Positions 5,585 to 12,628 of a stretch of DNA of 64,000 nt are shown in pieces; within the stretch, counting starts at the first letter, position 1; the number at the start of each line of letters is the position of its first letter. Below the pieces are notes generated by a model. The model worked only from the letters and a program-made list of their open reading frames with translations, did no database searches and was not told the DNA's origin. Source of the stretch: Escherichia coli. GTDB taxonomy: Bacteria; Pseudomonadota; Gammaproteobacteria; Enterobacterales; Enterobacteriaceae. Location of the stretch: the NCBI RefSeq assembly GCF_003334305.1, contig NZ_QOWS01000004.1; one strand, written 5' to 3'. Position numbers and translations under genes: made by a program.

Positions 5585-8341
5585 ATGACCAACTACAGCC
5601 TGCGCGCACGCATGATGATTCTGATCCTGGCACCGACCGTCCTTATTGGTTTATTGCTGAGTATCTTTTTCGTCGTGCATCGCTATAACGACTTGCAGCG
5701 TCAACTGGAAGATGCCGGTGCCAGCATTATTGAGCCGCTTGCAGTTTCTACTGAATATGGCATGAGCCTGCAAAATCGCGAATCTATCGGTCAGTTAATA
5801 AGCGTACTGCATCGTCGCCATTCCGATATTGTTCGCGCGATTTCGGTTTATGATGAAAATAACCGACTCTTTGTCACCTCCAATTTTCATCTTGATCCCT
5901 CATCAATGCAGCTCGGCAGCAACGTGCCGTTTCCTCGCCAGCTCACTGTCACTCGTGACGGCGATATTATGATCCTCCGCACGCCGATTATTTCTGAGAG
6001 TTACTCCCCCGACGAATCGCCCAGTAGCGATGCCAAAAATAGTCAAAATATGTTGGGATATATTGCGCTTGAGCTGGATCTTAAATCGGTTCGCTTGCAG
6101 CAATATAAAGAGATCTTTATTTCCAGCGTGATGATGCTGTTTTGTATCGGTATTGCGCTTATTTTTGGCTGGCGCTTAATGCGCGATGTAACCGGTCCGA
6201 TTCGCAACATGGTGAATACCGTCGACCGCATCCGTCGCGGGCAACTCGACAGCCGGGTGGAAGGATTTATGCTCGGCGAGCTGGATATGCTGAAAAACGG
6301 TATCAACTCGATGGCAATGTCGCTGGCTGCTTATCACGAAGAGATGCAGCACAATATCGACCAGGCGACGTCCGATCTGCGTGAAACGCTGGAGCAGATG
6401 GAAATTCAGAACGTTGAGTTAGATCTGGCGAAAAAGCGCGCCCAGGAAGCGGCGCGTATTAAATCCGAGTTTCTGGCAAATATGTCACACGAGCTGCGTA
6501 CACCACTGAATGGTGTTATTGGCTTTACCCGCCTGACGCTGAAAACAGAATTAACACCAACGCAGCGCGATCACCTGAATACGATTGAACGTTCGGCAAA
6601 TAATTTGCTGGCAATTATTAATGATGTTCTCGACTTCTCGAAACTGGAAGCAGGTAAGCTGATTCTGGAAAGTATTCCATTCCCACTACGCAGCACGCTG
6701 GATGAAGTCGTTACTCTGCTGGCACATTCTTCTCACGATAAAGGGTTGGAACTGACGCTCAATATTAAAAGCGACGTGCCTGATAACGTGATCGGCGACC
6801 CACTGCGATTACAGCAAATCATCACTAACCTGGTGGGGAATGCAATTAAATTCACCGAGAATGGCAACATTGATATTCTGGTAGAAAAACGTGCGCTGAG
6901 TAATACCAAAGTGCAGATTGAAGTGCAGATTCGGGATACCGGCATTGGTATTCCTGAACGCGATCAATCGCGCTTATTCCAGGCCTTCCGACAGGCTGAT
7001 GCCAGTATTTCCCGCCGTCATGGTGGCACCGGTCTGGGGCTGGTGATTACACAAAAACTGGTTAATGAAATGGGCGGCGATATTTCGTTCCATAGCCAGC
7101 CGAATCGCGGTTCAACTTTCTGGTTCCACATTAATCTCGATCTGAACCCGAACATTATTATCGAAGGGCCATCCACCCAGTGCCTCGCCGGTAAGCGCCT
7201 GGCCTATGTCGAACCAAACTCCGCAGCAGCGCAATGCACGCTGGATATTTTAAGTGAAACGCCGCTGGAAGTGGTTTATAGCCCAACGTTCTCCGCGCTG
7301 CCTCCCGCGCATTACGACATGATGTTGTTAGGCATCGCGGTGACCTTCCGCGAGCCGCTAACAATGCAACATGAGCGATTAGCGAAAGCGGTATCGATGA
7401 CCGATTTCCTGATGCTGGCACTTCCTTGCCATGCACAAGTCAATGCAGAAAAACTCAAGCAAGATGGTATCGGCGCGTGTCTGCTGAAACCATTAACACC
7501 TACGCGCCTGTTGCCTGCCCTGACGGAATTTTGTCATCACAAACAAAACACGCTTTTGCCTGTAACCGATGAAAGCAAGCTGGCAATGACAGTCATGGCA
7601 GTTGATGACAACCCCGCTAACCTGAAACTTATCGGCGCATTGCTGGAAGATATGGTGCAACATGTGGAACTTTGCGATAGCGGGCATCAGGCGGTTGAAC
7701 GGGCGAAACAGATGCCGTTCGATTTGATCTTAATGGATATTCAAATGCCTGACATGGATGGCATTCGGGCCTGCGAGCTCATCCACCAGCTCCCCCATCA
7801 GCAACAAACGCCGGTTATCGCGGTAACGGCGCATGCAATGGCCGGGCAAAAAGAGAAGCTGCTTGGCGCAGGGATGAGCGATTATCTGGCGAAACCGATT
7901 GAAGAAGAGCGATTGCATAATTTGTTGTTGCGCTACAAGCCTGGCAGCGGTATTTCCTCTCGCGTCGTGACGCCCGAAGTCAACGAAATTGTGGTGAACC
8001 CGAATGCGACCCTCGACTGGCAACTGGCACTACGCCAGGCAGCAGGAAAAACCGATTTAGCGCGCGATATGCTGCAAATGTTACTCGATTTCCTGCCTGA
8101 AGTTCGCAACAAAGTTGAGGAACAGCTGGTTGGAGAAAACCCGGAAGGCCTGGTTGATTTGATTCATAAACTGCATGGCAGTTGCGGCTATAGCGGTGTG
8201 CCGCGTATGAAGAATCTCTGCCAACTGATCGAACAACAGCTACGTAGCGGTACTAAAGAAGAAGATTTGGAGCCGGAGCTGCTGGAACTGTTGGACGAGA
8301 TGGATAATGTAGCGCGCGAAGCCAGCAAAATTCTCGGGTAA
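5585..8341 (+). CDS. barA: Hybrid sensor histidine kinase BarA (tripartite HK-REC-HPt)
   Basis: 918-aa [34 protein letters not shown]... with an H-box ([17 protein letters not shown]), a receiver domain ([14 protein letters not shown]) and a C-terminal HPt region. Confidence 0.97.
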
Positions 8342-8450: not shown

Positions 8451-8535
8451 AAACCAATTAAATTCAATGAATTAAAAAATGATGTAGACCTGATACATAG
8501 CACAACAGGCTATTTTGCGTTTAGCATCAGTCTCA

Positions 8536-8567
8536 AGCCGGCTCCAGATAGAGCCGGTTTTGGTTTT
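8536..8567 (+). terminator. Rho-independent terminator (plus-strand orientation, downstream of barA)
   Basis: GC stem gccggctc / gagccggt with a 6-nt loop, followed by TTTTGGTTTT on the plus strand. Confidence 0.6.
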
Positions 8568-8572
8568 CTGTC

Positions 8573-9913
8573 TTAACGCACCATGCACGGGCGCTTGTTA
8601 TCGAACGTCCAGCCAGGAATCAGATACTGCATTCCCATCGCATCGTCACGCGCGCCAAGCCCGTGTTTCTGATACAGCTCATGGGCTTTCATCACTTGAT
8701 CCATATCGATTTCTACACCCAGCCCCGGTTTTTCCGGCACCTGAACCAGACCGCCTTTGATCTCAAACGGTTCTTTGGTCAGGCGCTGATTACCTTCCTG
8801 CCAGATCCAGTGCGTATCAATAGCAGTAATTTTACCCGGTGCAGCGGCGGCAACATGGGTAAACATCGCCAGGGAAATATCGAAGTGGTTGTTTGAGTGT
8901 GAACCCCAGGTCAGGCCAAATTCATGGCACATTTGCGCCACACGTACCGAACCTTGCATCGTCCAGAAATGCGGATCCGCCAGCGGGATATCAACGGATT
9001 GCAGGGAGAGCGTATGGCCCATCTGCCGCCAGTCGGTGGCGATCATATTGGTTGCGGTCGGCAGGCCAGTTGCGCGACGGAACTCTGCCATCACTTCACG
9101 CCCGGAGAAACCTTGCTCCGCACCACACGGATCTTCTGCATAAGCCAGCGACCCTTTCAGGTATTTACCAATTTTAATCGCTTCGTTCAGCGACCAGGCA
9201 CCGTTAGGATCGAGCGTAATACGCGCCTGCGGGAAGCGTTGCGCCAGTGCCACAATAGACTCGGCCTCTTCTTCCCCGGCCAGTACACCGCCTTTCAGTT
9301 TGAAATCGTTGAAGCCATATTTTTCATACGCCGCTTCCGCCAGGCGCACCACCGCATCCGGCGTCATCGCTTCTTCATGACGCAGGCGATACCAGTCGCA
9401 TGAGTCATCCGACTGGCTTTGATACGGCAGCGGTGTGGCTTTGCGATCACCGACGAAGAACAGATAACCGAGCATTTCGACTTCGCTACGCTGTTGACCA
9501 TCGCCCAGCAGGGATGCCACGTTTACCCCCAGATGCTGCCCCAGCAGATCCAGCATTGCCGCTTCTATCCCGGTAACTACATGAATAGTGGTACGCAAAT
9601 CAAATGTCTGCAAACCGCGCCCACCAGCATCACGATCGGCAAAAGTATTACGCACCAGCGTCAGAACGTTTTTGTATTCACCCAGCGTTTTACCTACCAC
9701 CAGCGGAATCGCATCTTCCAGCGTTTTACGGATTTTCTCGCCGCCGGGAATTTCCCCTACGCCAGTGTGACCAGAATTATCTTTGATAATCACAATATTA
9801 CGCGTAAAGAACGGTGCGTGTGCACCACTCAGATTCATCAGCATACTGTCATGACCCGCCACCGGGATGACCTGCATTTCAGTAACAACAGGCGTCGTAA
9901 ATTGAGAACTCAT
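8573..9913 (-). CDS. gudD: D-glucarate dehydratase
   Basis: Enolase-superfamily protein. The ORF track extends to 9937 (MILKKDINM...), but the recognised protein begins [23 protein letters not shown] at the internal ATG (reverse complement of 9911-9913), which also removes the overlap with gudX. Confidence 0.93.
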
Positions 9914-9933
9914 ATTTATGTCCTTTTTCAGAA

Positions 9934-11274
9934 TCAATGACGGCCGAAAACGGGACGTTTACGGTCAAAGGTCCAGCCGGGGATCAGGTACTGCATCGGA
10001 CCTGCGTCGTTACGCGCACCGACAGGCAGACGTTTATAGGCCTCATGTGCCTTTTGTACCTGTTCCCAGTCCAGTTCCACGCCCAGACCGGGCGCATCAG
10101 GAACGGCAATTTTTCCGTTTTTAATCTCCAGCGGATTTTTGGTCAGGCGACAATCGCCCTCCTGCCAAATCCAGTGGGTATCGATAGCGGTAGGATTACC
10201 CGGTGCCGCCGCGCCCACATGGGTAAACATCGCCAGAGAGATATCGAAATGGTTATTAGAATGGCAGCCCCAGGTCAGCCCCCAGTCGTCGCAAAGCTGC
10301 GCCACACGGACTGCACCGGAAAGCGTCCAGAAGTGCGGATCGGCAAGTGGAATATCTACCGCATTGAGCATCACCGCATGACCCATTTCGCGCCAGTTGG
10401 TGGCGATCATGTTAGTCGCGACGGGCAAGCCGGTCGCCCGCCGAAACTCCGCCATCACTTCACGACCGGAGAAACCCTGTTCTGCGCCGCATGGATCTTC
10501 GGCATAGGTAAGAACATCATTCAGCCCTTTGCATAGAGAAATGGCTTCATCAAGTAGCCAGGCACCGTTGGGATCAACGGTAATCCGCGCATCAGGGAAG
10601 CGTTTCTTCAATGCCCGAACAGTGTCGATTTCTTGCTCGCCAGGTAACACCCCGCCCTTAAGTTTGAAATCTTTAAAGCCATAGCGATCCTGTGAGGCTT
10701 CCGCCAGACGCACAACGGCTTCGCTGTTCATCGCTTTCTGATGGCGCAACTGATACCACTCATGGTTGCCCGGCGTATTTTCCAGATAAGGAAGATCGGT
10801 TTTGGTCCGATCACCGATATAAAACAGATAACCGAGGACGGTAATAGTCTCGCGTTGCTTGCCTGGCCCCAACAGTTCGCAGACCGGAACATTCAGCGCC
10901 TTACCTAGCAGGTCAAGCAAGGCGGCTTCCAGCGCCGCCACGGCATTAACGCGCAATTCAAAAGTCCAGGCACCTTTGCCGAAGGTATCAAAATCGGCTG
11001 CCTGATTACCTTTATGCACCTGCTGAACCACTTTATTCAGGCGCGCAACTTCCTGGCCCAGAACCATCGGAATAGCATCGACCAGTGTTTGATAAATCAC
11101 CTCTCCGCCCGGCGCTTCACCAATGCCGGTATGCCCGGCGTTATCGGTGAGTACCACAATATTGCGGGTGAAATATGCGTTATGTGCCCCACCAATATTA
11201 AGCAACATGCTATCGTGCCCGGCGACCGGAATGACTTTCATATCAGTAATAACAGGACTGGATTGTGTCGTCAT
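9934..11274 (-). CDS. gudX: Glucarate dehydratase-related protein GudX (enolase superfamily paralogue)
   Basis: 446-aa [44 protein letters not shown]..., clearly paralogous to the adjacent gudD product. Confidence 0.93.
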
Positions 11275-11275
11275 C

Positions 11276-12628
11276 TTATTGCCCCGCGACAGGTTTCAGC
11301 TCGATACGCTTGATATCGCCCACCAGCACCAGGTAGCTCAGTACCGCGATTAAGGCATGAACACCAACATAAATCAGCGCCCCATTAAAGGAGCCAGTCG
11401 TGCCAACGATATAACCAATTGCGATTGGCGTGACGATGCCAGAAATGTTACCGAACATGTTGAACAGGCCACCGGAAAGACCGCTGATCTCTTTTGGCGC
11501 GGTATCTGCCATTACTGCCCAACCCAGCGCCCCGATGCCCTTACCGAAGAAGGCCAGCGCCATAAAGCCGATGATCATCCACTCAACGTTGACGTAGTTG
11601 CAGAACACCATCACCATCGACAGCAACATGCCCATTACGATCGGTGTTTTACGCGCAATGTTCAGCGATCCCGTGCGGCGCATCAGCCAGTCGGAAATAA
11701 TCCCACCCAGCACACCGCCGATAAAACCGCAAACCGCCGGAACGGAAGCCACAAAGCCCGCTTTCAGAATCGACATCCCACGCGCCTGCACCAGATAAAC
11801 CGGAAACCAGGTAATGAAAAAGTAAGTCAGGGCGTTGATACAGTACTGACCGATATAAACGCCGATCATCATCCGTGACCCGAGCAGTTGTTTGATCTGC
11901 CCCCACTTCACGCTGAACGGCACTTTAACTTTGGTGTTTTGCTGATCCATATTGATCAGCGCGCCACCCGCGGCGATGTACTCCAGCTCTTTCTGATTTA
12001 CCCCCGGATGTTGATTTGGCTCGTGGATGACTTTCAACCAGATAAAGCTGATGACAATCCCCAGACCGCCCATAAAGAAGAAGACGTGTGACCAGCCCAC
12101 TTCATGCGTCAGCCAGCCCATAATCGGCGCGAAGATCACCGTTGCGAAGTATTGAGCGGAGTTAAAAATCGACACCGCCGTTCCCCTTTCCTGCGCCGGA
12201 AACCAGGCCGCAACAATGCGACTGTTGCCGGGGAAAGATGGCGCTTCAGCAAGCCCGACCAGGAAGCGCAGAGTAAACAGGGCAACGATAATGCCGAATC
12301 CACTAAAGATATCGACGAAGCCTTGCAGCAAGGTAAACATCGACCAGATAAAGATCGACCAGAAGTAGACGCGTTTTGAACCAAAACGATCCAGCAACCA
12401 ACCACCAGGGATCTGCCCGATAACATAAGCCCATGAGAAGGCAGAGAACACATAGCCCATTCCCACGGGATCAAGGCCGATATCTTTGGCCATTTCCGAA
12501 CCGGCAATAGAAAGCGTAGCGCGGTCGCCGTAGTTGAAGGATGTGACGATAAACAACATCACCACTATCCAGTAACGAGCATTCGTGCGTTTTTCCACAC
12601 TGCTCGCAGCCTGACTTAAAGAACTCAT
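11276..12628 (-). CDS. gudP: MFS transporter for D-glucarate/galactarate
   Basis: 450-aa hydrophobic [43 protein letters not shown]..., with multiple predicted TM helices; first gene of the gudPXD operon. Confidence 0.93.

Follow-up and report, generated by a model that had tools for sequence, protein, structure and literature searches.

The gudX-gudD tandem and its operon

We analysed a stretch of 64,000 nucleotides from the Escherichia coli contig NZ_QOWS01000004.1 (hereafter the window), in which two adjoining open reading frames of 446 amino acids each, gudX and gudD, occupy positions 8573-11274 of the minus strand. The gudD gene (8573..9913, minus strand, stop codon included) encodes D-glucarate dehydratase (GudD, the GlucD of the enzyme literature), and gudX (9934..11274, minus strand; ATG start, TGA stop at 9936-9934), formerly ygcY, encodes the glucarate dehydratase-related protein (GlucDRP, here GudX). 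GudX retains every catalytic residue of GudD that was compared, and the two proteins differ by a small set of clade-fixed changes that cluster in loops of the capping domain. The original prediction, made from the sequence of the window, had described two adjacent frames of about 446 residues with an almost identical N-terminus and had named them gudX and gudD; the motif it quoted is present exactly as given, and RefSeq carries both names.

The open reading frame listed for gudD began at an upstream TTG (8573..9937), whereas the true start is the ATG at 9913; a Shine-Dalgarno sequence (AAAGGA, 9926-9921) sits 7 nt ahead of it. This sequence lies in the 20-nt spacer between the two genes (9914..9933, minus strand), which offers insufficient room for a promoter or terminator of its own. 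Upstream of gudX, and first in the operon, is gudP (11276..12628, minus strand; 450 amino acids), so named in RefSeq and encoding a major facilitator superfamily (MFS) transporter for glucarate, galactarate and glycerate. A single nucleotide separates the gudP TAA stop codon (11278-11276) from the gudX ATG (junction CAA TAA G ATG). GudX is made from the same mRNA as GudP and GudD. A promoter consensus scan found no convincing sigma-70 site on the minus strand 5' of gudP; a weak consensus is expected there because the operon is CdaR-activated. The scan for terminators, by consensus only, found a G+C-rich hairpin with a 10-bp stem (8535..8560) 3' of the gudD stop codon, between the convergent gudD and barA genes, and this hairpin is a likely operon terminator. 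On one side the operon borders on barA and rlmD; the genes on its other side are yqcA, truC and yqcC. The 4.3-kb gudP-gudX-gudD stretch was matched in 5,426 of 5,426 complete E. coli genomes, with 100% identity over its length in strain H15, and the window carries the core E. coli gudP-gudX-gudD operon.

GudX is a GlucD-subgroup protein that falls below the glucarate dehydratase cutoff

Comparison by BLASTP gave 285 identities over 448 positions (64%), with 79% positives and 5 gap positions, a likeness between GudX and GudD that far exceeds chance. GudX consists of an N-terminal capping domain (PF02746) and a C-terminal barrel (PF13378), the Pfam assignments being those of the 98-99% identical cluster representatives P0006 and P0008. 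Its AlphaFold2 model has a mean predicted local distance difference test score of 90.5 and shows the alternating strands and helices of the barrel, and the protein matches GlucD chains of the PDB over its full length. GudX belongs to the glucarate dehydratase (GlucD) subgroup of the enolase superfamily.

The closest characterised system is GudD itself (EC 4.2.1.40, b2787; PDB 1EC7, 1EC8, 1EC9, 1ECQ, 1JCT and 1JDF), with which GudX shares fold, length and operon; the GudD of the window is in the same sequence family as 1EC7. The two proteins are separated by the NCBIfam equivalog for glucarate dehydratase (TIGR03247, EC 4.2.1.40; curated cutoff 828.7 bits), against which GudD scores 899.6 bits and passes, whereas GudX scores 751.7 bits and does not. 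Since GudX lies below this cutoff, RefSeq gives it the generic name 'enolase C-terminal domain-like protein', gudD being annotated as 'glucarate dehydratase'. The PDB labels GudX a 'Glucarate dehydratase-related protein' (4IL0, 4GYP). The original prediction had treated the role of GudX as unsettled, in keeping with RefSeq, NCBIfam and the PDB, all of which avoid calling it glucarate dehydratase.

The GudX of the window is 99% identical to 4IL0 and to chain C of 4GYP; the five changes from the K-12 construct (E59D, T142A, L164V, K381Q and V418G) all lie outside the signature and catalytic sites described below. PDB entry 4GYP contains GudD and GudX sequences together, with 2 GudX chains, and we take its title to describe a heterotetrameric complex. 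In the open-access literature we found no function assigned to GudX or GlucDRP, gudX being named there only in passing, and no paper for 4IL0, 4GYP, 3N6H, 3N6J or 3PFR, and a paper on active-site profiling handles GlucD as a single group, with GlucDRP unmentioned. Earlier records thus already cover the two genes and their paralogy, the 'related protein' label, the structures and the missing function assignment. The additions made here are a negative result at the catalytic site, a polarised clade signature, an account of selection and phylogeny, and natural hybrids of gudX and gudD.

All catalytic and first-shell residues are conserved in GudX

We compared 18 active-site positions of GlucD (GudD numbering: H32, T103, Y150, F152, K205, K207, D235, N237, E260, E266, N289, D313, H339, S340, N341, D366, H368 and R422). 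This list and the roles of the residues we take to be those given by Gulick et al. (2000/2001) and UniProt P0AES2; the numbering is supported because the expected residue type is found in the GudD sequence at every one of these numbers. The original prediction had proposed that differences at metal-binding and general-base positions would be informative. The alignment of E. coli GudX with GudD revealed none, all 18 metal-binding, acid/base and substrate-contact positions being identical, and the same positions were invariant in 45 of 45 proteins of the GudX clade in other species, drawn from Enterobacterales, Orbaceae, Pasteurellaceae, Halomonas and Paludibacterium. Substitution in the catalytic or metal site is therefore ruled out as the source of a functional difference, since no such substitution exists.

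In the GlucD subgroup the three carboxylate/amide ligands for Mg2+ sit where barrel strands 3, 4 and 5 end; in GudX they are Asp234, Glu259 and Asn288, corresponding to Asp235, Glu260 and Asn289 of GudD. The acid/base set of GudX comprises Lys204-x-Lys206 and the His338-Asp312 dyad, together with Asn340, Asp365 and His367. The equivalent Lys205-x-Lys207 and His339-Asp313 of GudD are invariant in both clades and in 14 distant outgroups. GudX thus resembles GudD in all of its Mg2+ ligands, the KxK motif and the dyad, as well as in the counterparts of GudD Asn341, Asp366, His368, His32, Thr103, Tyr150, Phe152 and Arg422.

A small GlucD-like group among the outgroup proteins (P0125, P0128 and P0140; 39-45% identical) lacks Lys207, His339, Tyr150 and further catalytic residues. 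Judged from their sequences, these proteins look like pseudoenzymes or repurposed proteins, and their losses imply that catalytic residues can be lost in this family when catalysis is not under selection.

The clade-fixed differences cluster in the lid and 20s loop

Sites of type-II divergence were defined as those at least 90% conserved within each clade but with a different residue in the two clades. There are 13 such positions, which read from GudD to GudX are L28I, S29G, R88H, an inserted Gly89, Q102W, D105E, I110V, H111N, T114A, D294N, S322A, S338C and G418P; an invariant Phe98 and a two-residue deletion after Arg107 are additional features of GudX. The sites cluster in two loops of the capping domain, those bearing His32 and Thr103, and beside Asn289, His339 and Arg422. 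Residues 88-114 hold 6 of the 12 numbered sites (P=0.0017 for any 27-residue window), and 7 of the 12 are no more than 5 residues away from a first-shell residue (P=0.023). In GudX numbering the resulting signature is I27, G28, H87, G89, F98, W103, E106, V109, N110, A113, N293, A321, C337 and P417. The GudX of the window has the complete signature and, with its near-identity to 4IL0, falls within the clade. Of the structures from Actinobacillus succinogenes (3N6H, 3N6J and 3PFR), which are GlucDRP structures closer to GudX than to GudD, 3N6H likewise shows the full signature, and 3PFR reportedly has D-glucarate bound.

The first cluster is in the '20s' hairpin loop, whose residues 27-31 (I-G-G-A-H, codons at 11182..11196 of the minus strand) include the substrate-contact residue His31. 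Here GudX reads NIGGAH in place of the canonical NLSGAH, a form found from Firmicutes to Proteobacteria, and in the GudX model I27 and G28 are placed in the hairpin loop ahead of His31, between strands E24-26 and E34-44. The second cluster is in the lid, residues 87-113 (10936..11016, minus strand), with H87, the G89 insertion, F98, W103-T104-F-E106, the two-residue deletion, V109, N110 and A113. The GudX lid reads F-G-x-GAWTFELR, followed by the deletion and VNAVAA, and does not match the canonical lid sequence. No part of the protein is more conserved within the clade than the lid (98-115), in which 72% of positions are invariant compared with 42% overall and mean conservation is 0.985 compared with 0.873 for the whole protein. 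The sole low-confidence segment of the GudX model (95-102) overlaps the lid and leads into helix 109-127; this predicted segment is presumably mobile. At 7 of the 13 sites (L28, S29, Q102, D105, D294, S322 and S338) the canonical residue is also present in P0124 (55% identity), the closest outgroup protein with an intact catalytic site, indicating that most of the GudX states are derived.

An independent tandem of GlucD paralogues was found in Lucifera butyrica (Negativicutes; locus L054, 4512-5954 and 5908-7326). In its upstream copy, which alone among 123 sequences lacks Thr103, the same lid loop is extended by an insertion of 17 residues, so that divergence of a duplicate at the lid is seen here for a second time.

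GudX is an old paralogue family maintained by selection

A scan of species-representative genomes gave 80 loci, from which 121 GlucD-family genes were extracted. The tandem of gudX followed by gudD was present in approximately 39 species (Enterobacterales, Orbaceae, one member of the Pasteurellaceae and one proteobacterial metagenome-assembled genome), always in this order and with a median spacer of 20 nt that contains a Shine-Dalgarno sequence (AAGGA). The only non-tandem locus was that of Acerihabitans arboris (L036; 2729-4297, minus strand, and 5974-7323, plus strand), where the two genes are on opposite strands, with gudD 1.7 kb upstream.

In distance trees GudX formed a clade of its own, whose internal branching mirrors that of the partner-GudD clade. 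When the tree was rooted with outgroups from a 50%-representative library, one chimera having been removed, monophyly was recovered in 53 of 60 bootstraps for GudX and in 52 of 60 for the partner-GudD clade. GudX branches off close to the base of the canonical radiation as a whole, where resolution is poor, and its root-to-tip path is longer (0.285 compared with 0.17-0.19). Identity to GudD is 73-77%, and to GudX only 64-66%, for the single-copy enzymes of Pseudomonas, Bradyrhizobium, Variovorax, Acinetobacter, Bacillus, Paenibacillus and others. GudX is an old paralogue family. A recent enterobacterial duplication is ruled out, because GudD nests among these canonical enzymes of many phyla and GudX lies outside all of them.

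The ratio of nonsynonymous to synonymous substitution (dN/dS, Nei-Gojobori method), determined for E. coli against 14 other Enterobacteriaceae, was 0.015-0.047 for gudX and 0.016-0.052 for gudD; in deeper comparisons the dN of gudX was 1.0-1.7 times that of gudD. Orthologues of GudX in Erwinia, Pantoea, Mixta, Buttiauxella, Enterobacter and Salmonella are 84-91% identical. In complete E. coli genomes gudX was found at a coverage of at least 80% in 5,409 of 5,426 (99.7%), and gudD in 5,413 of 5,426. GudX is clearly maintained by selection, and relaxed selection or pseudogenisation of gudX was rejected on the basis of dN/dS and retention in E. coli.

Codon bias within the operon is strongest in gudD, with an effective number of codons (ENC) of 39.9 compared with 46.6 for gudX and 48.9 for gudP. 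This fits the dS of gudD to other Enterobacteriaceae, which is lower than that of gudX in most comparisons, and hints at a different translation demand within one operon. One genome labelled E. coli (SCPM-O-B-8794, locus L027), a GTDB species representative, has a dS of approximately 0.42-0.45 to the window in gudX and gudD at a protein identity of 98-99%; this is above the usual E. coli range, and the genome may represent a divergent Escherichia lineage labelled E. coli.

Genomic context and physiology of gudX

Genes of the GudX clade that carry the signature also occur in clusters for hexarate or glycerate catabolism with no gudD inside 6 kb. In Halomonas eurihalina (L044, 4866-11635) the order is kdgD, a gudX-like gene, three transporter open reading frames (336, 182 and 504 amino acids) and a second kdgD. 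The two kdgD genes, which are paralogues, encode 5-dehydro-4-deoxyglucarate dehydratase, the 504-residue product is the TctA subunit of a tripartite tricarboxylate transporter, and no canonical GlucD was found within 6 kb of the gudX-like gene. In Paludibacterium the order is two glycerate kinase genes, a pyruvate kinase gene, a gudP-like MFS transporter gene and the gudX-like gene. These lone-gene settings suggest that a GudX-clade protein is able to supply the pathway by itself.

In Salmonella, gudT-ygcY-gudD is controlled by CdaR and is induced by glucarate, galactarate and glycerate (PMC11077982). All of gudT, ygcY, gudD and garD are degraded in S. Paratyphi A. With a working transporter S. 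Typhi grows poorly on glucarate, and S. Typhimurium gudD rescues this growth although ygcY is 'apparently intact' (PMC11077982). The GudX orthologue would accordingly not stand in for GudD in S. Typhi; the evidence for this is indirect, the experiment having addressed gudD rather than the function of ygcY. In Dickeya solani, transposon sequencing showed gudP, gudD, gudX and garL to contribute to fitness on galactarate (PMC10202176). We dropped a role for GudX on galactarate drawn from this result, since insertions in gudX are expected to be polar on garL, garR and garK: gudP-gudX-gudD-garL-garR-garK share one strand in that organism, and garD is present.

Natural hybrids and fusions of gudX and gudD

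A natural hybrid of gudX and gudD is present in Pantoea stewartii subsp. stewartii (L031, 6001-7338). Residues 1 to approximately 260 of its product are of the GudX type (identity 0.8-0.97 to GudX of Erwiniaceae) and residues from approximately 261 to 445 of the GudD type (0.95-0.98), with the crossover in a block that is identical between the paralogues. The hybrid lies in a cluster (garD and gudP-hybrid-garL-garR-garK) that is intact in other respects and has no further GlucD-type gene. The exact sequence of the hybrid was found on 7 contigs, including that of strain DC283. It represents a ready-made domain swap, in which a capping domain and half barrel of the GudX type are joined to a C-terminal half of the GudD type.

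We also found six over-long products of the GudX-GudD fusion type (P0002, P0003, P0004, P0005, P0007 and P0010; 583-690 amino acids), composed either of full GudX plus the N-terminus of GudD or of GudX residues 1-229/274 plus most of GudD. Most were singletons, whereas P0007, annotated in E. coli as a 'hypothetical protein', was found on 23 contigs. The tandem paralogues seem to have been rearranged with each other repeatedly, although some of these fusions may be artefacts of assembly or annotation.

Discussion

We propose that GudX is a catalytically equipped enzyme of retuned specificity or kinetics that is co-expressed, and probably co-assembled, with GudD and feeds the same downstream pathway. 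We hold this reading tentatively, at a probability of approximately 0.45, because the reaction centre is intact, the capping loops and periphery were rebuilt once and then frozen, and selection on gudX equals that on gudD. We infer in this way the catalytic activity of GudX, its altered specificity and a heteromer in vivo. In the enolase superfamily, as established by Babbitt, Gerlt and co-workers, the barrel performs a conserved partial reaction, the Mg2+-assisted abstraction of the proton alpha to a carboxylate, and the loops of the capping domain set the specificity. The machinery of GudX would abstract this proton, stabilise the enediolate and eliminate the beta-hydroxyl. The periphery that determines specificity would have been rebuilt a single time, early in the GudX clade, and frozen thereafter: in the 20s loop by the change of LS to IG ahead of His31, in the mobile lid that carries Thr104 by F98, Q-to-W103, D-to-E106, the two-residue deletion, H-to-N110 and T-to-A113, and in the flanks of Asn288 (D-to-N293), His338 (S-to-C337) and Arg421 (G-to-P417). 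GudX might then bind or turn over a hexarate-like diacid that is unlike D-glucarate at its distal end, away from the reacting carboxylate, or might handle glucarate and idarate with very different kinetics. Either way its product, 5-dehydro-4-deoxy-glucarate, would enter the same pathway through GarL or KdgD, and in enteric bacteria GudX would probably work as a hetero-oligomer with GudD.

Several points weigh against this proposal. No substrate is known for GudX, and purified GlucDRP, in work ascribed to Hubbard and colleagues (1998), was reportedly strongly impaired in the dehydration and epimerisation of glucarate and idarate. To our knowledge the structural genomics effort behind 4IL0 and 4GYP gave no published activity. 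The invariant catalytic residues would also fit a ligand-sensing role without turnover. The lone status of gudX in Halomonas and Paludibacterium refers to a 6-kb neighbourhood, and a canonical GlucD may sit elsewhere in these genomes. Finally, that the signature residues line the pocket is suggested by their adjacency in the sequence to known contact residues and by the domain architecture.

A somewhat doubtful alternative is that GudX acts chiefly as a partner subunit with little or no catalysis of its own, stabilising, regulating or tuning GudD in a GudD-GudX heterotetramer and perhaps sensing ligand without turnover; a homo-oligomeric GlucD would have been duplicated and its paralogues would have kept co-assembling. 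The presence of both proteins in crystal entry 4GYP, the strict order of X then D with a short coupled junction in 39 species, the mirrored X and D trees, the stronger codon bias of gudD (ENC 39.9 against 46.6), as for a main catalyst, the low activity reportedly found by Hubbard and colleagues (1998) for isolated GlucDRP, and a weak GudD in S. Typhi that ygcY leaves uncompensated are all consistent with such a partner. A scaffold, however, needs neither the Mg2+ site nor the KxK motif nor the His-Asp dyad, and yet these are invariant in 45 of 45 proteins, whereas the relatives presumed to be non-catalytic (P0125, P0128 and P0140) did lose catalytic residues. The signature is moreover kept in Halomonas and Paludibacterium with no gudD within 6 kb, and the most conserved GudX-specific region is, as judged from its sequence, the active-site lid, which we would not place on an oligomer interface. 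The general concept of paralogous heteromers that arise after duplication of a homomer offers a parallel, in that gudX and gudD are tandem, co-transcribed duplicates of an oligomeric enzyme whose products share a crystal entry; the parallel leaves the interdependence of the subunits putative, and it differs in that GudX-clade genes also occur without an adjacent gudD.

A more specific version of an enzymatic role, which we regard as unlikely, is that GudX is dedicated to a physiologically relevant relative of glucarate that GudD cannot use. It would turn this compound into the common intermediate 5-dehydro-4-deoxy-glucarate, and the new specificity would come from the rebuilt Trp103/Glu106 lid. 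Candidate substrates would be D-glucaro-1,4- or 6,3-lactone, or another hexarate stereoisomer; glucarolactones are forms that glucarate adopts in the gut.

Simple redundancy, with GudX as a back-up isozyme for the dehydration of D-glucarate, appears to us decidedly unlikely. It would be in keeping with the identical catalytic and first-shell residues, the operon and regulon shared with gudD, and the lone GudX-clade gene that adjoins kdgD in Halomonas. It does not account for a score below the curated TIGR03247 cutoff or for a derived, frozen lid and periphery unlike those of all canonical enzymes from Firmicutes to Proteobacteria, and a redundant copy would not hold a dN/dS of approximately 0.03 for so long across bacterial orders; the strong impairment reported for the isolated protein (ascribed to Hubbard and colleagues, 1998) also speaks against it, and the failure to compensate in S. 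Typhi is a further, indirect, argument. The original prediction had coupled retention of every catalytic residue with equal activity as the mark of simple redundancy: the residues are indeed all kept, whereas redundancy is not supported, owing to the derived lid, purifying selection equal to that on gudD and the lack of compensation in S. Typhi. That gudX is a decaying duplicate on its way to a pseudogene is extremely improbable, given a dN/dS of 0.015-0.047 that equals that of gudD, orthologues 84-91% identical across Enterobacterales, an intact gene in 99.7% of E. coli genomes and invariant catalytic residues, even though its function is unassigned and some host-restricted Salmonella serovars carry it as a pseudogene, with gudT, gudD and garD degraded too.

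Returning to the proposal of a retuned enzyme, the same principle of conserved barrel chemistry combined with divergent capping loops is seen in L-talarate/galactarate dehydratase (NF047820). GudX matches such acid-sugar dehydratase families only weakly (63.9 bits against a cutoff of 500) and differs from them in belonging to the GlucD subgroup, with a His-Asp dyad plus KxK motif and an Asn as third metal ligand. Unlike GudD, it lies below the equivalog cutoff, carries 13 clade-fixed substitutions and indels and forms a separate, old clade.

The gene is a core, strongly conserved component of E. coli and Salmonella in a pathway that has been linked to gut colonisation. If GudX were the dedicated enzyme considered above, a gene of the E. 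coli core genome that has long been an orphan would gain a real reaction, and the glucarate/galactarate pathway of enteric pathogens in the inflamed or antibiotic-treated gut would be extended. Our analysis narrows the question of what GudX does: the answer lies away from the catalytic residues, in the derived and frozen signature of the lid and 20s loop.

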